Shown here piece after piece: positions 1 through 27,667 of a DNA stretch of 40,772 nucleotides; the stretch's first letter is position 1; every line of letters begins with the position of its first letter. Below the pieces are notes generated by a model. It worked only from the letters and a program-made list of their open reading frames with translations. It did no database searches and was not told the DNA's origin. The DNA comes from a virus. Lineage: Duplodnaviria > Heunggongvirae > Uroviricota > Caudoviricetes. The stretch spans positions 1 to 40,772 of the IMG/VR virus record IMGVR_UViG_3300028456_000002, one strand, 5' to 3'. The translations under genes were made by a program, and so were the position numbers.

Positions 1-1095
1 TTCGTTTCGGATGTCTTCGCTGCGGATGCAGACCTCGCTGCTGCGCTGGCCTGTTCAGCGGCTTCGCCAGCCTTCGTTGTGGCTGTTGAAGCAGACGATG
101 CGGCACTTTCTGCCGATTTTCCGGCGGCAGTGGCTCTGGCTGAGGCCTGCCCGGCACTTGTTGACGCGGCACTGGCAGATGATGCAGCCGCTGTTTTTGA
201 GCCTGCCGCAGCTGAGGCACTCTGTCCCGCTGACGTTTCAGAAGGACCTGGCGTTCGTCTCGGACGTTTTTTGCCGCCTTCGCGGAATTTGCCTGCCGCC
301 GTTGCCGAGGAAGCGGAACTACTGGCGCTCGAGGATGCGTTCGTTTCTGATGATTTCGCTGCCTCTTTTGAGGCCGCCGCATCCCGGGCTGAGGTGGCAG
401 CTTCTGACGCTTTCGTAGTCGCGGTGGATGCAGAAGTGGCTGCTGATTGTTGTGACGCTGCGGCATTCGTTTTCTGACGTTTTCGCCGCACCGGCACTGG
501 TAGCCGCCGCGCTTTTTGAGGACTCTGCAGCGGCAGCACTTTTTTCCGCTTCAGTGGCCTTTGTTGATGCCGTTCCTGCGCTGGAGGACGCTGACTGAGC
601 CGACGAAGCGGCCTGTCCGGCTGACGTGCTGGCTGCGCGTGCTGAGCCTGCAGCATCAGTCGCATGGGTTGCCGCCTCACTGGCAGATGTGCCGGCATCG
701 CCGGCTGACTTCTTCGCGGCTGCCGTGTTCTGTGCCACCGCGGACGCGTTACGCGCCACCTCTTCCACCATCAGTTCAAAACGGCGCAGAGCCTCCGGAC
801 GGGCATCATCCTCCGTCATGGCACCGAGAAAATCATTCAGCGTACCGGGTCGGGAATCTTCATACACGGTGATAGTCCCGGCATGTGACGGCGGGAATCC
901 CTCCACCAACAGAATAACGCTGTACTGACCGTACTCAACGTCCATGCTGTAACGCCCGGCTTCATCCGGATTTTCTGAGGCCAGCGTGTTCACCACCACC
1001 GTGTTGCTGTTACGTTTTGCTTTCAGCTGGATTGTGCAGTTCTGTACCGGTTTTCCTGTGCCGTCTTTCAGTACACCTGAAATCTTTACTGCCAT
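1..1095 (-). pseudogene. stf: Side tail fiber protein Stf, 5' part; gene runs off the left edge and its frame is broken
   Basis: ORF 319..1101 translates to MAVKISGVLKDGTGKPVQNCTIQLKA... followed by Ala/Ser-rich repeats typical of lambda Stf. Frame is lost after ...AAKTSE where the minus strand reads GAAAACG and GAAACG would keep frame. Remainder continues in another frame to position 1. Confidence 0.8.
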
Positions 1096-1825: not shown

Positions 1826-5226
<3,401 letters not shown>

Positions 5227-17361: not shown

Positions 17362-17579
17362 CAGAACCTCGCCAGCCGGTACCCGGGATGCCCCCGTCGT
17401 CGTGTAATCAGAGCCGCAAGGCGGCGCTCCCACTCCTGCCGCCCCTGCCGGATCTCAGATAAGTTTTCCATGGTCATCTGCTGACCATTAAAGGTGACGG
17501 ATTTTCCGTCCAGCACCGCCATTTCAGCTTCCGTATAACGCTGAATCATGGCTTCAATATCATTCTGGTTCATAACCAT
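17361..17579 (-). CDS. W: Head-tail connector protein W-like
   Basis: 72 aa, C-terminus ...RRRGHPGYRLARF resembles lambda W end; stop overlaps portal start. Confidence 0.6.
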   Translation of the reverse strand: MVMNQNDIEAMIQRYTEAEMAVLDGKSVTFNGQQMTMENLSEIRQGRQEWERRLAALITRRRGHPGYRLARF

Positions 17580-19674
17580 CCTCCGGAAGTCATCCAGGGG
17601 TTAACATCGTCAGTTACTGTTTTCTTCCGTTTTTGTTTTTTAACAGGCGTGGATACCGATTCCGGTGAGGGTGACGGTTCGATACTGTCCGGGACACACT
17701 CCAGCCATGTTTCCCGGCTCGCCCATTCCGGTGCATCCGGCCAGCGGATCTTTTCGTATCCATGCAGAATGACCAGAGCCTCGGCATACACCATCAGGTC
17801 AAAGGCTTCGTTGGCACCGCGACCCGGCTTACTCCATTTCCCGTCACTGCTCCGCTCTTCATACGTCAGTTCGTCGTAAAACCAGCTCCCCAGCCAGTCA
17901 GGGAAATGCACATAGCCTGGACCTGGCGAATCACGCCATAACGCGTTATTCACCCGGTCTTTCAGGGCATCCGTCTGAAGAAGCCAGAGCGGCACATCAC
18001 CTGCGGCCTGCGCCCGTCGGCCCGTTCGTCCGATGTTATCAGGGAATGTACGGGTGATCAGTTTTGCGCGCCGGATGCTGTCGCCCTTAAACAGGTAAAT
18101 ACGTTTACCAAGGCCATCACGACGGCAACGACGCCAGAATTTATAGGCATTATCAGTGACCCCGTCTTCACCGCCGGAGTCCACCGCCATTGCCATCAGT
18201 CGCATTTGTTGAGAAGGATCGGAGGCCAGCGGCCAGCTTTTATCAAAAAAACATCTGTCAGCAGGACATCCCAGTCTTCCGGATAGCTGGCCGGATCAAT
18301 TCGCTGGCTCTCCCCGTCGCTGTCACCGCGCAATGACTGCGTGATGTTGTAACGATCAATAATCCAGCGTTCGCCACGGCTGCCATAGCCCGTTACCTGA
18401 ACCACAAAACGGCGATGACGTCCCGCCTGCACATCAACTGTCGCCACTAGGAAATTAACGCCATCCGGCACACTGCGGGGAGGAACTGGCTCTGCTCGCT
18501 GCTCAAGCAGCTCACTTTTTCGTTGCTCCATGCTGGCGCGGGGAAGATAAGGTAATCCCCAGTCGGTATTGATAACCGTCTTGAGTGTTTCTTCACTTCC
18601 GGTTGTCTCGTATTCCTGTTCTGCAGTAAGCAGTTTGTAAACGAGTTGCGAGAGTGTCTGGTAAGCAGCTGCCGGACCCTCCATCCAGAATGACGCAATA
18701 CGTGAACGCCTGGGATCACCATAACGACTGCCATCCGCACTGATGGATTCACCATCCCGCAACCAGACCCCACGTCCGTTCAGCTCACGTTTTTGTTCAG
18801 GCATAATCCGTCCTGAACAGAAAGGACACTGAATATAAGCCGCCTCACTTGCCAGCACGGGATCGGCAATATCACGGAAACCAGCAACCACATCGCCGCA
18901 GGGCTGAAAATACTCACCACAGTGTGGACATGGCCAGTACCAGCGACGGCGATCACCACGGTTATAGAGCGACAGGATCCCCGTGGTTGGTGGAGCCTCA
19001 TGCGGTGAAGTCCGTCGCCATTTCACATCCTTCACATCCCTGCCGGGGGAACTCTCCACCAGCGTCATACCGCTGGACATAAATGTGGTGGTACGTTTTG
19101 AGGCAAGAGAGAAGGCATCCCCCTCGCCATCAATATCTTCCGGAAAACGGTCATAATCCGTCAGCGCGACGCATTTATAATCTGATGAGGACATGATATT
19201 GACTGACGGCCAGCCGATTTTCAGGTAGTTGCCAGCAAGGAATGTTCTGTCATAAACGTTGTTGTCATTTTTGTTCGGACTCAGGCGACTGACCACTTCC
19301 GGGCTGACGCGAAACGTTCTGGCGAGTCGTTTTTTGGAGTGTTCGCGGGCTTTTTCCTCTGTCATCTGAATGATCAGCATATCCGCAGGATCGCAAATCA
19401 CGTTGTAAATCACCCAGCCGTCAATCAGGCCGATAGTCTTGCCGGTTCGTGCCGGACCAACAAATATCACTGCGTCGTATTCACGCGAGGCCAGGCAGTT
19501 CATCGGCTCAATAACATACGGTGCCACCAGCGGATCCCACGGGACTGAGTTCCCGGCCCCCATGGGCACCCGCATATACTGAGCAACGGCATCAGCAACC
19601 CGCATTCGTCTCGGTGCGCGAAGGATATAACCTGAATCGGTTCGTGCTGCCTTTGCGGTTTCCTGATTCAGCAT
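17570..19674 (-). pseudogene. Terminase large subunit, split into two ORFs by a frameshift in a T7 run
   Basis: ORF 18196..19674 carries the N-terminal ATPase region (...WPCPHCGEYFQ... like lambda A); ORF 17570..18205 carries the C-terminal nuclease part. On the minus strand GATGTTTTTTTGATAAAAGC has 7 T; 8 T would give one continuous frame. Confidence 0.85.
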
Positions 19675-22174: not shown

Positions 22175-22191
22175 ACTTTTTTCTCCTGTAA

Positions 22192-22215
22192 ATAAAAAAG
22201 GGCCACCAGCGGCCC
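22192..22215 (-). terminator. Rho-independent terminator immediately upstream of the holin gene
   Basis: Minus strand GGGCC-GCTGGT-GGCCC followed by TTTTTTATTT. Confidence 0.6.
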
Positions 22216-22348
22216 GTAATAAAACACCCCGTCAAAGGCACCCGCCGATGTCTTTTATGTGATGTATTCAGATTCAATACACGTTGAGTAAAGCGCAGAT
22301 ATGAAAAAGGCCCGCCGCAGCGAACAATAAAGAAACGAAATTCTGAAT

Positions 22349-22372
22349 AAAAAAAACCGCCAGATACGGCGG
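22349..22372 (-). terminator. Rho-independent terminator downstream of the tRNA pair
   Basis: Minus strand CCGCC-GTATCT-GGCGG followed by T8. Confidence 0.65.
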
Positions 22373-22734
22373 TTGGTCAATGCAAGAGATACATTCTTAA
22401 TTGTAATAAAACCGAGGTGTCGGGTGCCTCCCGAAGTATTCCGTCCTGTATGAATACTGTGGTTTCCCGCTAAACCGACTCTTTTAACCACCCTCGCCCT
22501 GAGGAGCGCCCCGATGGTGTTATTTACAACACCAGAATGATACATCACCGACCCTGCCAGGAAATACAAAATCTCCACCAGCAATGCACCATTCTGCTGC
22601 CGTAAAAAAATCAGCACTGAAGCTAACCTGGCCTCAAATCATAGCCAGAGAACAGAATGCTTTTTCAAAACAACCTGCTCCCACGTAATAAAAATACGCC
22701 AGTGCTGCAATACAATAAGGCTTATTTCAAATGC

Positions 22735-22809
<75 letters not shown>

Positions 22810-22812
22810 ATA

Positions 22813-22888
<76 letters not shown>

Positions 22889-22940
22889 ATTGGTTCCTCA
22901 GGAAAAATAAAAATGACCGCGCTTTACATCCCCCTTGGAA

Positions 22941-22968
22941 CCGAAAAAGAATATTAATGAGGACAGAC
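22941..22968 (-). promoter_or_regulatory. Candidate sigma70 promoter for the tRNA pair
   Basis: Minus strand TTGAAA, 16-17 nt spacer, TAATAT, about 45 nt upstream of the tRNA-Thr 5' end, AT-rich upstream region. Confidence 0.4.
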
Positions 22969-23057
22969 ACTTTTTCAATTAAAAACCGTGTCAATATTCG
23001 TAAATATATGTATAGATTTCCATTATTTATGAAATTCAGAAATAATGACACGCACAT

Positions 23058-23984
23058 TTAACGATTATTTTTTATTTCAATTACAGTCTGATTAAATCTC
23101 TCTTCTTCCAGCTCCACACCTATTGCACGCCTTCCCAGCGATAATGCTGCCTTTATTGTTGACCCCGACCCCATAAAAAAATCAGCAACCAAATCTCCCG
23201 GATGGCTGCTGGTAGTAATTATCTGACGCAACATATCCGCCGGTTTCTCACAGGGATGTTTGCCGGGGTAATACTGCACAGGTTTGTGCGTCCAGACATC
23301 TGTATACGGAACGGCAGCCGATACGGAAAAATAACGCCGCAGAGATTTGTACTCATCCAGCAGACTGGCATATTGCCGGTTCAGTTCACTGTATGTGCTG
23401 ACCAGCTGGTGGTGTGGCTTTTCCAGTTCACCGCGCTGATGTTTTTCTGCTGCAACACGCGCAAACAACGCCTGTAATTTCAGATAATCGCCTTCGTTCG
23501 GCAACTGCCACTGACTGATACCAAACCAGTGCGAAGCCATGTTTTTCTTTCCGGTGGCTTCCGCTATCTGTTTTGACGTTATTCCCAGTGATTCACGCGC
23601 ATCACGAAAGTAAGAAATCAGCGGAGCCATCACGTGCTGCTTAAGCTCGCGCCCCTTTGCCGCATAGCCGTCATTTTTGGGCTGGTATGGCCCCTGATAA
23701 TGTTCTGCAAACAGAATGCGTTCTGTTGCCGGAAAATACGCTCGCAGACTTTCCTTGTTGCACCCGTTCCAGCGCCCGGACGGCTTCGCCCAGATAATGT
23801 GGTTCAGCACATTAAAGCGTTCACGCATCATGATTTCGGTGTCAGATGCCAGGCGATGACCACAGAACAGGTAAAGACTTCCGGCAGGCTTCAGTACCCG
23901 CCAGAATTGCGCCAGACACTGGTCCAGCCATTTCAGGTAATCATCGTCGCCCTTCCACTGGTTATCCCAGCCCTCGGGCTTCAC
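23058..23984 (-). CDS. DNA methyltransferase (N6-adenine/N4-cytosine type); annotated ORF lacks the catalytic N-terminus because of a frameshift
   Basis: 308 aa ORF from a GTG. The same frame is open upstream to 24089 and encodes KYPVVELINADCLEFIQTLPENSVDLIVTDPPYF (DPPY motif). An ATG at 24105 (MINTVK) is in another frame; the A5 run GTAAAAATAT would join them if it were A4. Confidence 0.8.
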   Translation of the reverse strand: MKPEGWDNQWKGDDDYLKWLDQCLAQFWRVLKPAGSLYLFCGHRLASDTEIMMRERFNVLNHIIWAKPSGRWNGCNKESLRAYFPATERILFAEHYQGPYQPKNDGYAAKGRELKQHVMAPLISYFRDARESLGITSKQIAEATGKKNMASHWFGISQWQLPNEGDYLKLQALFARVAAEKHQRGELEKPHHQLVSTYSELNRQYASLLDEYKSLRRYFSVSAAVPYTDVWTHKPVQYYPGKHPCEKPADMLRQIITTSSHPGDLVADFFMGSGSTIKAALSLGRRAIGVELEEERFNQTVIEIKNNR

Positions 23985-24255
23985 TTTAAAGTATGGCGGG
24001 TCTGTGACTATCAGATCGACAGAGTTTTCCGGTAAGGTCTGGATAAATTCCAGGCAATCAGCGTTGATTAACTCAACGACTGGATATTTTTACAGTATTA
24101 ATCATAGATCAATAAGCACTTCTCTGATAGGCTCATTCCGCTTTTGCGCAAAGCAGATGGGCCTGAGGTTTGCTTGTGACCCCAACGCATGAGCAGATGG
24201 CTGGCAGGTGCCGCTAACACCCACCAGCCGCCCATTACCACAAATAAAAAAGCCT

Positions 24256-24456
24256 TCACTGCGGAAGGCGTCTGTAACAACCGAACTGATAATCTGCCAG
24301 ACCCGCCATAACAAGCTGGGTCAGTATTAACTGGCAGCGTTCGCGTGAAAGGTAAGTATTCTGTGCAATCTCCCCGACGGTCGCCGGTTCGGTGACGCTT
24401 AACTCATTAAACACCACTCTGGCGGTTTCGGTCATATCCTGCTGTTTTAGCATGTC
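24256..24456 (-). CDS. Small hypothetical protein, first ORF after the late terminator
   Basis: Start taken at MLKQQDMTETARVVFNELSV... preceded by AAGGA; about 66 aa. Confidence 0.4.
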   Translation of the reverse strand, partial: DMLKQQDMTETARVVFNELSVTEPATVGEIAQNTYLSRERCQLILTQLVMAGLADYQFGCYRRLPQ

Positions 24457-24576
24457 TTTTTTCCTTTTCTGGTTAACGTGACATACCAATAACTCTTGTC
24501 CAAAAAGCCAGCAAGCTGAAAGACCGGCATTCGCAACCACCAGCGCATTTAACGTCCTGTACCGCTTTTCGGGCAC

Positions 24577-24600
24577 AAAAAAACCCGCTTGGCGGCGGGT
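24577..24600 (-). terminator. tR'-like terminator just downstream of Q
   Basis: Minus strand CCCGC-CGCCAA-GCGGG followed by T7. Confidence 0.6.
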
Positions 24601-24653
24601 TTTGCTTACTTTGCCATCGCGTACAAAATCGGCAAAATATCAGATTTGCATGA

Positions 24654-24682
24654 AATATATGCTTTTTAATCTACTTTTGCAA
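24654..24682 (-). promoter_or_regulatory. pR'-like late promoter overlapping the Q stop codon
   Basis: Minus strand TTGCAA, 17 nt spacer, TATATT; a short transcript would end at the terminator at 24577..24600, the lambda pR'-qut-tR' layout. Confidence 0.55.
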
Positions 24683-25361
24683 TACTTTGCTTTGAAAATG
24701 CCGCCTTTTGTTCCGAACGCGTTCTCATTACCAACAATAAAGCCTCACTATCCAGCTGATGGAAAATGTGTTTCATTGCAACCCAGTGACCAGTAAATGT
24801 TTTGGACCAGTTTTTAGTTGTCACTCCCGCCAGTAATGCCAGATCCTGGTATTCATAACCTTCCCCGCCAAAAAGTTCTGCTTTTACTGCCTGCGCCGCC
24901 AGCCAGATTAATTTTTTCAGGCGTTCCCGTGTTTTCTCTGCAATTTTCCTGTTGCCAGAATGAGCCTTAAACTCTTCCCATGCCCAGCGGGTTATGGTGA
25001 CCTGATACTCCCAGCAAATATTTCCGCTGTAACACCACAACAACCAGGTTTTATGAGGTTCTTCAAGAGACAGAACAGCCCGTCGCCATGAGGATGTCGA
25101 AAACTCAACCTGACTTACCAGAGGAATTGACGTCCCCTTCGCCAGCGATTGTTTCCCCGGGATTGGTGGATTATCCCGCGTGATAATTTTTCCAGTCGCT
25201 TCATCGCGGTACCGGATTTTTTTACGCCTGTAACGCCCTGTATCGAACATGGCATTCTCCTGCCAGGCTTCAAGCTGACCTTTTGTTGCCCCACTCAAAT
25301 CGGCGGTGGCGATAATGAGCTGCTCACGAACAAACTGTAAATACTGGTTATTCATGCGCAC
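24666..25361 (-). CDS. Late gene antiterminator Q-like protein
   Basis: 231 aa ORF directly upstream of the pR'/tR'-like elements and downstream of rusA; assignment is positional, family not verified. Confidence 0.6.
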   Translation of the reverse strand: MRMNNQYLQFVREQLIIATADLSGATKGQLEAWQENAMFDTGRYRRKKIRYRDEATGKIITRDNPPIPGKQSLAKGTSIPLVSQVEFSTSSWRRAVLSLEEPHKTWLLWCYSGNICWEYQVTITRWAWEEFKAHSGNRKIAEKTRERLKKLIWLAAQAVKAELFGGEGYEYQDLALLAGVTTKNWSKTFTGHWVAMKHIFHQLDSEALLLVMRTRSEQKAAFSKQSIAKVD

Positions 25362-25717
25362 TCCAGCTCTGTGATTTTTATCCCCAACCGACCACCAGGA
25401 ACGACCTGACCGCGCACAATATTAATTTCATCAAACTGCTCGTCGTCTATGAGCAGCCCCGCATGCGTCAGCGCATCCAGCGGTGCTTTCAGGATATTGT
25501 CCAGATCACGACGGCGCTTATCCGGTGGCTCTGCAATAATCTTTATCGCCAGCCTTCCGGACAGGTTTAATTTCAGCCGCTGCTCGCGAACAATTAGCGC
25601 CACATCACGGCGATAACGCTCACCGACTTTTGATACAAAATATGTGCTGCCACGACGTCGCCAGTAGGTGTTCACCGTTGGCGGGTAAGGCAAAACAAAT
25701 TCTATGCTTTCAGTCAT
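25352..25717 (-). CDS. rusA: Holliday junction resolvase RusA
   Basis: 121 aa, ...LPYPPTVNTYWRR... and ...PDKRRRDLDNILKAPLDALTHAG... match RusA family motifs. Confidence 0.9.
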   Translation of the reverse strand: MTESIEFVLPYPPTVNTYWRRRGSTYFVSKVGERYRRDVALIVREQRLKLNLSGRLAIKIIAEPPDKRRRDLDNILKAPLDALTHAGLLIDDEQFDEINIVRGQVVPGGRLGIKITELECA

Positions 25718-26776
25718 TTATGCTTTCCACTTCAGGACACCTGAATTTCTCGCGTGCATTAAAAAACGAATCAGCAACAACAGCTGGCTGCCGTGTTTTT
25801 CTTCAAAATCTTTTACCCCGGCGTGCAGTTCGTTATGACATTTACGGCACAGCGGAATAACAAACAAATCGTCAGTCTTTGTTCCCATCCCTCCCAGTCC
25901 ATAGCCAATGATGTGATGCGGATCATCTGCCTGATTGCCACAAGTCATGCATTTCTGCGTTTTTACCCAGCGCGTGTATACGGGCATCTCTTCCCGCTGT
26001 GGTTTCTGACGCTGGAGATACTGAGTCGGAGACTCCGGATCAACGGCAATGCTGACCACCGTCTTTTCCTGTGGTGGGTTCTGTTGCTGGTGGACGTGAG
26101 GCGGTAACGCAATATTTTTTGTGCGCTGCTTCAGTATGCTGGTGGCGGTCGGTTCTCCCGGTATGATGTCGCTTTCGCGGTACACTGAGCGGATTTTTTC
26201 CGCACGTAACCCCAGAGAACGACGTAATACTACCTCCGGTAGTGCGTCCGCCACCTGATTGCAGACAGCCCACCAGGATAATTCAGCCAGCGATAATTCC
26301 CGCTCCTGCGCACCGCTTATTGCGTGACGGATGACGTCAATCATCCATGCTGTCAGGTTTTGTTGAGCAAGTTGCTCAAGTGATTCTGAGGTCTGGTCAC
26401 GCAGCTGGTTGTCGCAGTGCCAGCACAACACCATCGCGCCGGTGCCGTAACGATGTATGACGGTTTCGCTGTGGTGATAGTCACCATGAGGCCACTGGCA
26501 GGATTTAACATGACGCAGGAGCCAGTCAGACAGTGCACCAGCGCCGCCGGCAGCACGAATCACCCGTTCGTCGCTGAAAAATGGCAGTAATGATTTATCT
26601 TCCGCCAGCGGCTGGCGAACGGCAGGAACAACTCCGGACGGCAGACCACGCATGCTTTTCGGTTCCGGCTCCACCAGCACTCGAGGGTTATGAAATACCT
26701 GCATGGATTCACGGCCCGGCTTTAGCACCACCAGCCCAAGTTCCGGTACCGGAACAGGTCGAAGCAATACCCGCAC
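25718..26776 (-). CDS. ydfU: YdfU-like protein (DUF968) with C-terminal HNH-like Cys/His cluster
   Basis: 352 aa; C-terminus ...CMTCGNQADDPHHIIGYGLGG...CRKCHNELH; resembles Qin prophage YdfU from memory. Confidence 0.7.
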   Translation of the reverse strand: MRVLLRPVPVPELGLVVLKPGRESMQVFHNPRVLVEPEPKSMRGLPSGVVPAVRQPLAEDKSLLPFFSDERVIRAAGGAGALSDWLLRHVKSCQWPHGDYHHSETVIHRYGTGAMVLCWHCDNQLRDQTSESLEQLAQQNLTAWMIDVIRHAISGAQERELSLAELSWWAVCNQVADALPEVVLRRSLGLRAEKIRSVYRESDIIPGEPTATSILKQRTKNIALPPHVHQQQNPPQEKTVVSIAVDPESPTQYLQRQKPQREEMPVYTRWVKTQKCMTCGNQADDPHHIIGYGLGGMGTKTDDLFVIPLCRKCHNELHAGVKDFEEKHGSQLLLLIRFLMHARNSGVLKWKA

Positions 26777-27493: not shown

Positions 27494-27530
27494 CGCAAAA
27501 AACAAACCAAAAAAAAGACAAAACCACAAA

Positions 27531-27590
27531 CAATACAAACAATACAAACAATACAAACAATACAAACAATACAAACAATACAAACAATAC
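27531..27590. repeat. Tandem repeat, 9-bp unit CAATACAAA, 6 perfect copies plus a partial seventh
   Basis: Read directly: caatacaaa repeated head-to-tail from 27531 to 27584, then caatacagg; intergenic. Confidence 0.9.
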
Positions 27591-27667
27591 AGGCGCATCG
27601 ATAATTAATTAACTTATCGGGCTACAAGGTAATATAACTTCAGTTAAAATTATTAATCTCTTATTCG

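Follow-up and report, generated by a model that had tools for sequence, protein, structure and literature searches.

A 40,772-nt virus record (IMG/VR IMGVR_UViG_3300028456_000002), referred to here in its whole length as the window, carries a DNA methyltransferase gene on its minus strand whose longest canonical open reading frame (ORF) starts at a GTG codon located immediately downstream of the codons for the catalytic DPPY motif. This arrangement raises the question of what has cut the catalytic N-terminus off the protein and whether the gene can still yield an active enzyme. A preliminary description based on the sequence alone had traced the break to a 1-nt insertion in a run of five adenines (A5) and had offered three options: that the gene is inactivated, that it is phase-variable at the homopolymer, or that the break is a sequencing error. 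The features of the locus are collected in Table 1.

TABLE 1 Coordinates of the disrupted methyltransferase gene, its late-region neighbors and other frameshifted genes in the window
Feature	Position	Strand	Description
Whole disrupted methyltransferase gene	23058..24105	-	1,048 nt; minus one T, 1,047 nt, i.e., 348 codons plus stop
Remnant 5' ORF	24073..24105	-	ATG ATT AAT ACT GTA AAA ATA TCC AGT CGT TGA = MINTVKISSR*; 10 codons, stop at 24075-24073
Residual canonical ORF	23058..23984	-	308 aa from GTG 23984; without residues 1-40, including DPPY
DPPY catalytic motif (motif IV)	23991..24002	-	Main frame, upstream of every canonical start codon
A5 run	24087..24091	-	GTA AAA ATA = V-K-I; wild-type sequence, not the lesion
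Lesion	24075..24078	-	Codon 10 TGT to CGT (T to C at 24078) plus one extra T (TT 24076-24075)
Hairpin perfected by both changes	24059..24082	-	CAG-T-CGTTGA (GTTAA) TCAACG-CTG; 9 bp, one bulge
Antiterminator Q gene	24666..25361	-	PF06323 Phage_antiter_Q
Promoter-like TTGCAA-17-TATATT, candidate PR'	24654..24682	-	3' end of Q; consensus match only
GC-rich hairpin followed by T run, candidate tR'-like terminator	24577..24603	-	AAAACCCGCCGCCAAGCGGGTTTTTTT; downstream of the promoter-like site
Second terminator-like hairpin	24245..24269	-	GCCTTCCGCAGTGAAGGC then TTTTTTATTT; between 65-aa ORF and methyltransferase
65-aa ORF	24256..24453	-	Conserved; always 150 nt before the methyltransferase
tRNA-Thr(TGT), tRNA-Gly(TCC)	22735..22888	-	22813-22888 and 22735-22809, respectively; downstream of the methyltransferase
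gpJ (tail tip)	1829-5226	-	Four frame segments; intact in E. coli 2EC1, where the orthologue has 1,132 aa
Large terminase	17573-19674	-	Segments of 476 and 226 aa; A run at ~18245 enlarged by a 2-nt insertion; orthologue intact, 700 aa
Tail-fibre N-terminal domain gene	1-1093	-	Two segments, frame change near 471

Reading frames of the methyltransferase gene

The GTG at the start of the residual ORF encodes the V in DPPYFK-V-KPEGW. Upstream of it, the main frame remains open to position 24089, where it encodes ...ELINADCLEFIQTLPENSVDLIVTDPPY and also reads ...ELINADCLEFIQTLPENSVDLIVTDPPYFK. This frame is displaced by +1 relative to that of the remnant ORF, whose ATG at 24105 is the same ATG that is used in PGAP-annotated intact orthologues. 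The uninterrupted ORF of ~348 to 361 aa that runs from this conserved ATG is absent from the window copy, in which translation stops after 10 codons, the remaining coding sequence being in the +1 frame. When one T was removed from the coding sequence (CDS), the repaired CDS contained a single, terminal stop codon and no other stop or indel. The joined protein matched Pfam PF01555 N6_N4_Mtase over residues 29 to 340 (E value of 3e-44), and the beta-class motif order was kept, with DPPY at residues 35 to 38 and FFMGSGS at residues 309 to 315.

The frames and the Pfam match bear out much of what the preliminary description had reported, namely, a DNA methyltransferase whose catalytic N-terminus is severed by a 1-nt insertion, a GTG start just after DPPY, and the missing N-terminus encoded upstream in the same frame. 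The ATG (MINTVK) that it had placed in the adjacent frame is likewise present; its 5' boundary for the gene, 24110, lies 5 nt too far upstream.

The residual 308-aa ORF still contains the FxGxG motif (FFMGSGS, 23180-23160). However, a DPPY-bearing product is not makeable by normal translation of the window allele, because the only canonical restart, GTG 23984, comes after DPPY. The role of motif IV in enzymes of this kind is established and is the basis on which a DPPY-less product is judged to be inactive. A product starting from V41, which would lack DPPY and part of the Rossmann catalytic domain, should thus be inactive.

Position of the extra base

The lesion lies approximately 10 nt downstream of the A5 run and brings the TGA at 24075-24073 into frame. 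When 5' ends were aligned, the orthologues read CCAGT-TGT-GAG (or TGC or TAT at the same codon) and the window read CCAGT-CGTT-GAG, while GTAAAAATAT was identical in the window and in all of the aligned intact orthologues. These orthologues encode proteins of 348 to 352 aa, are annotated by their depositors or by PGAP, and come from E. coli MB06234, SE11, 52F4, E2348/69, and O26:H11 11368 and from phages phiP27 and Stx2a_1447. Relative to six orthologues, the insertion at codon 10 was the sole indel inside the CDS. Deleting the T yields MINTVKISSRELINADC; deleting an A also joins the two frames but yields MINTVKYPVVELINADC, an N-terminus found in none of the 112 orthologues that were read to their stop codon, all of which read ..TVKISSxELINAD...

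We surveyed this region among relatives by searching for a pattern in which the adenine run could range from A3 to A6 and codon 10 could contain 2 to 5 bases; this found 120 IMG/VR loci and one locus in a metagenome-assembled genome (MAG); together with seven annotated loci, this made 128. All 128 combine A5 with a 3-nt codon 10 (TGT in 110, GCT in 9, TGC in 4, others in 5, and CGT in 0), and 10 further NCBI loci show the same combination, for a total of 138 loci read directly. The ORF from the conserved ATG was 341 to 403 aa long (mode, 349) in 109 of the 112 readable loci, and all 112 ORFs start with M-x-(N/D)-TVKISS-x-ELINAD. Explicit patterns for A4 and A6 alleles had no match in the whole of IMG/VR, and the commonest allele, when altered to A4 or A6, had no match at ≥99% identity in ~2,600 complete E. 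coli records, the best match always being one gap off.

These results do not fit the preliminary description's account of the break, in which an A4 tract had expanded to A5, removal of one A was the repair, and reads showing A4 would indicate an intact gene. Deleting one A does restore an open frame, as that account holds, and such a tract might act as a phase-variable ON/OFF switch. However, A5 is present in all 138 loci, including the PGAP-annotated intact genes of 348 to 352 aa, and in the gene for the characterized enzyme M.EcoGII, which reads TVKISS. Every intact orthologue therefore has the tract length that was taken to be mutant, the extra base is in the TT at 24076-24075, and the repair is to delete a T rather than an A. 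Given also that the A-deleted product matches no orthologue and that no A4 or A6 alleles came to light, we attach virtually no weight to A4-to-A5 expansion as the lesion. Judging from these alignments, the frame break is real, and the window copy is broken by one extra base outside the A5 run.

Homopolymer slippage at A5 was rejected as a source of phase variation for the same reasons, namely, the universality of A5 and the lack of A4 or A6 alleles in the collections named above. Known phase-variable methyltransferases have tracts much longer than five bases, and the 5' coding region contains no long simple-sequence repeat, its only runs being A5 and the T2 at the lesion. The window gene resembles the Mod phasevarions (PMC4417156) in that its 5' coding region is out of frame, but it differs from them in having neither a long repeat nor tract-length polymorphism and in being of the orphan type II beta class rather than a type III mod gene. 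A truly length-variable tract, unlike the A5 run, is found elsewhere in the window at 27526-27591, where the perfect 9-nt tandem repeat ACAAACAAT is present in 7.3 copies, two to three more than in the related prophages L145 and L148.

The window's own 86-nt 5' segment was compared with 3,761 places in 5,426 complete E. coli genomes, not one of which was identical to it (the best differed by one mismatch and one gap), and the exact allele was not found in IMG/VR or in JGI metagenomes. The GTDB species representatives yielded just one locus, which has the normal allele and comes from a MAG labeled Bacillus sp., in which a 2.5-kb contig (JBJEFM010000100.1, 2184-2221; locus L008) carries an E. 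coli-type methyltransferase 5' end; this contig is probably mis-binned or contaminating. A few other family copies are inactivated as well: L137 (CP123349.1, 6349-8400) diverges after approximately residue 148, whereas the ORFs of L066 and L071 end after 29 and 316 aa, respectively. Occasional decay of the methyltransferase gene is therefore not unusual.

Family membership and late-region context

The repaired protein is identical to M.EcoGII at 295 of 347 positions (85%), and the true identity is at least 85%, since the M.EcoGII sequence was taken from the supplement of PMC11551740, the text of which contains OCR noise. M.EcoGII is a 349-aa beta-class enzyme (DPPY, target recognition domain [TRD], FxGxG) encoded by a prophage of E. 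coli O104:H4 (PMC5778455), and its residues 1 to 134 and 260 to 349 form the Rossmann catalytic domain (PMC11551740). Like M.EcoGII and M.EcoGI (E. coli O104:H4 C227-11; EGT69837.1; Murray et al. 2018, PMC5778455), the repaired window protein has an N-terminal DPPY, a central four-helix TRD, and a C-terminal FxGxG. It is 348 aa long, shares the N-terminus M-x-NTVKISS-x-ELINADCLEF with M.EcoGII, and is likewise prophage-borne. M.EcoGII starts MLNTVKISSCELINADCLEF, with TVKISS read through A5 in the frame of the window's ATG, and its N-terminus, MLNTVKISSCELINADC..., indicates that the A5-encoded residues are normal in a characterized enzyme. In contrast to M.EcoGII, the window copy is frameshifted after codon 10 and encodes no DPPY-containing protein.

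Closer relatives were also identified. The enzyme of phage 1720a-02, which has been named as very similar to M.EcoGII (PMC5778455), is 86% identical to the repaired protein, and the nearest intact orthologue, WP_447310680.1 of E. coli MB06234, is identical to it at 343 of 348 positions (99%). NCBIfam holds no equivalog-level model for the family (the best match, PRK11524, was below its cutoff), and a search of the PDB returned no close structure, the best match having an E value of 7e-24 to methyltransferases of 249 to 283 aa. Taken together, these comparisons lead us to conclude, with a probability of roughly 0.8, that the window gene is a pseudogene of the known M.EcoGI/M.EcoGII family of orphan beta-class N6-adenine DNA methyltransferases rather than a functional member of it. 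M.EcoGII methylates adenine in any sequence context and is harmful if expressed constitutively; like M.EcoGI, it is silent in the lysogen (PMC5778455). Sequence-independent specificity may be predicted for the window's family member from homology only.

On the minus strand, the genes around the methyltransferase are ordered as follows: a DUF968 gene, RusA, Q, the 65-aa ORF, the methyltransferase, tRNA-Thr, tRNA-Gly, two holins, and an M15 endolysin. Relatives show the same late-region order. The genes annotated as "DNA methylase" between Q and tRNA/stx in lambdoid and Stx phages (phiP27 L24, Stx2a_1447_26, and 1720a-02) have 83 to 92% nucleotide identity over most of the query region and share the succession of 65-aa ORF, 150 nt, methyltransferase, and then tRNAs and lysis genes. 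Unlike in these phages, the tRNAs of the window are Thr and Gly rather than ileZ/argN/argO, no stx follows, and the methyltransferase gene is broken. The slot that holds stx in relatives (window positions 22175-22734) appears to be empty here; in the closest annotated relative, MB06234, no gene is annotated between the tRNAs and the holin. In E. coli, members of the M.EcoGI/M.EcoGII family are found in lambdoid prophages, in a slot that lies between the Q antiterminator and the tRNA and lysis genes.

The 65-aa ORF has no Pfam or NCBIfam match. Its exact protein occurs in ~32,000 blocks of a read-based collection, in which some records call it a TrmB family transcriptional regulator. The unit of 65-aa ORF, 150 nt, and methyltransferase recurs in loci L132 to L141 behind three unrelated antiterminator families (PF06323, PF03589, and PF06530/DUF1133). 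The promoter-like site overlapping the end of Q and the two terminator-like hairpins that follow look like a PR'/tR' late-control arrangement.

The preliminary description had placed the gene downstream of Q and before the tRNAs, as is observed, and had deduced from this position that it is expressed with the late genes. The deduction is reasonable and agrees with M.EcoGI and M.EcoGII being silent in lysogens: late, Q-dependent expression is a reasonable expectation from the consensus promoter and terminator matches and from the literature on relatives. Transcripts of an intact copy would come from no promoter other than the Q-dependent late one and would read through the two terminator-like hairpins.

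Origin, authenticity, and consequences of the lesion

The lesion consists of a substitution and an insertion that lie next to each other and have a common effect. On the coding strand, CAG-T-TGTGA(GTTAA)TCAACG-CTG has become CAG-T-CGTTGA(GTTAA)TCAACG-CTG, which converts an imperfect inverted repeat into a 9-bp hairpin, each changed base making one arm complementary to the other. DNA folding gave -7.3 kcal/mol for the window allele (z score of -6.1, with 0 of 200 shuffled sequences being as stable) and -1.7 and -1.9 kcal/mol for the ancestral alleles. Of the 7,099 distinct variants that a single substitution combined with a single 1-nt insertion can generate from the ancestral 28-mer, no more than 4 are as stable.

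Quasipalindrome-templated strand-switch mutation is documented in E. coli (PMC7202029). Since both changes together turn the imperfect inverted repeat into the 9-bp hairpin, we lean, with modest confidence, toward the view that they arose in one event, by a quasipalindrome-templated strand switch in replication. The lesion is like the E. coli cases studied by the Lovett laboratory (PMC7202029) in combining an adjacent substitution and +1 insertion that make one arm complementary to the other. It differs from them in its stem, which at 9 bp with one bulge is short relative to experimental quasipalindrome hot spots, and in being a natural allele whose origin was deduced afterward rather than seen, so that the hairpin argument is post hoc. 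The intermediate allele, CGT at codon 10, occurs in 0 of the 128 loci, which is consistent with a single event without proving it. No hairpin signature was seen at the other 13 private indels of the window.

Three other genes of the window are frameshifted in comparison with a 97% identical prophage of E. coli 2EC1, the genes of which are annotated as intact. In gpJ, indels lie near 3764, 4133, 4232, 4300, 4307, and 4889. The lesion at 4889 is shared with NCBI assembly GCA_000249415.2, in which gpJ is called as 147 plus 985 aa, and the other gpJ indels are private to the window; at 3764, a 99.6% identical relative (L142) has the intact allele. The tail-fibre gene has four single-base insertions (242, 267, 291, and 470) within 230 nt relative to 2EC1, and L142 lacks the one at ~473. 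The read-based gene collection contained neither fragment of the large terminase. Relative to the 2EC1 prophage, ten further structural genes are uninterrupted. For gpJ, the terminase, and the tail fibre, the frameshifts reflect either prophage decay or low-quality sequence. Since these three genes are frameshifted as well, loss of the methyltransferase is probably part of a general decay of the prophage.

The same indels bear on whether the methyltransferase gene of the strain is in fact intact, the extra T (and perhaps also the C) being an artifact of sequencing or assembly. Many private 1- to 2-nt indels disrupt gpJ, the large terminase, and the tail fibre. Some of them form clusters, with 175 nt of gpJ (4133-4307) and 230 nt of the tail fibre (242-470) containing four each, and such clustering can also be a sign of poor sequence quality. 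The absence of the 3764 and 473 indels from L142 and of the terminase fragments from the read-based collection points the same way, as does the failure of the methyltransferase allele to appear in any other genome, viral contig, or metagenome searched. However, a contig that Logan assembled directly from the reads of public run SRR23004523 is identical to window positions 22861-26420 at 3,560 of 3,560 nt, including CGTT, although the run may share its isolate with the window, so that the contig, while independent of the assembler, may not be so of the DNA sample. Gene calling on this contig, the only other carrier of the window's allele, gave the same 308-aa product. In addition, the lesion site is a dinucleotide rather than a homopolymer, and an artifact would not be expected to produce a substitution and an insertion that jointly perfect a hairpin. 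We therefore regard an error as unlikely. Of the three options originally offered, inactivation is thus favored, phase variation is dropped, and sequencing error is made unlikely by the 100% identical Logan contig.

The gene seems to have been lost late in its history. The repaired CDS differs from that of MB06234 at 41 of 1,047 nt, which fall in 32 synonymous and 5 nonsynonymous codons. Because the differences are mostly synonymous and there is no other stop or indel, the sequence indicates that purifying selection acted on the gene during almost the whole of its divergence and that the break is recent.

A small amount of enzyme might still be made despite the frameshift, either by reinitiation at a near-cognate ATC (24068-24066) that lies 6 nt beyond the TGA or through +1 frameshifting at CGT-TGA. 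The enzyme, whose overexpression is toxic, would then be supplied at a reduced dose. Because no stop interrupts the main frame from 24089 onward, DPPY would be kept in a product begun a few codons past the stop, and the harm caused by constitutive M.EcoGII (PMC5778455) means that attenuation could in principle be tolerated or favored. Nevertheless, we consider such expression very improbable, since the site lacks a canonical start, a Shine-Dalgarno-like sequence, and a slippery codon, and the frameshift arrangement occurs in 0 of 138 relatives and so is not programmed. The tRNA-Arg that decodes CGU cannot re-pair on GUU, unlike at the CUU-UGA site of prfB. A programmed +1 frameshift of the prfB type was also sought; the site, AGT CGT TGA G, has no Shine-Dalgarno-like element, and the frameshift is common to no orthologue. 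The related idea that the new hairpin and the premature stop throttle a toxic methyltransferase to a trickle that prophage or host can tolerate is, in our estimation, similarly far-fetched.

Inactivation by the extra T thus remains the preferred reading, and the right label for the gene is a frameshifted pseudogene of the M.EcoGI/M.EcoGII family with its lesion at 24076-24075. It is an ordinary pseudogene of a well-characterized and very common family; both the family and the mutation mechanism are already known, and the main value of the finding is that the gene can be annotated correctly. As for the lesion, it resembles a naturally occurring case of quasipalindrome-templated mutagenesis. Naming the family is useful, because a widely used nonspecific m6A enzyme belongs to it and about half of the complete E. 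coli genomes carry it. An intact copy would methylate phage DNA during lytic growth, and the window copy would not.
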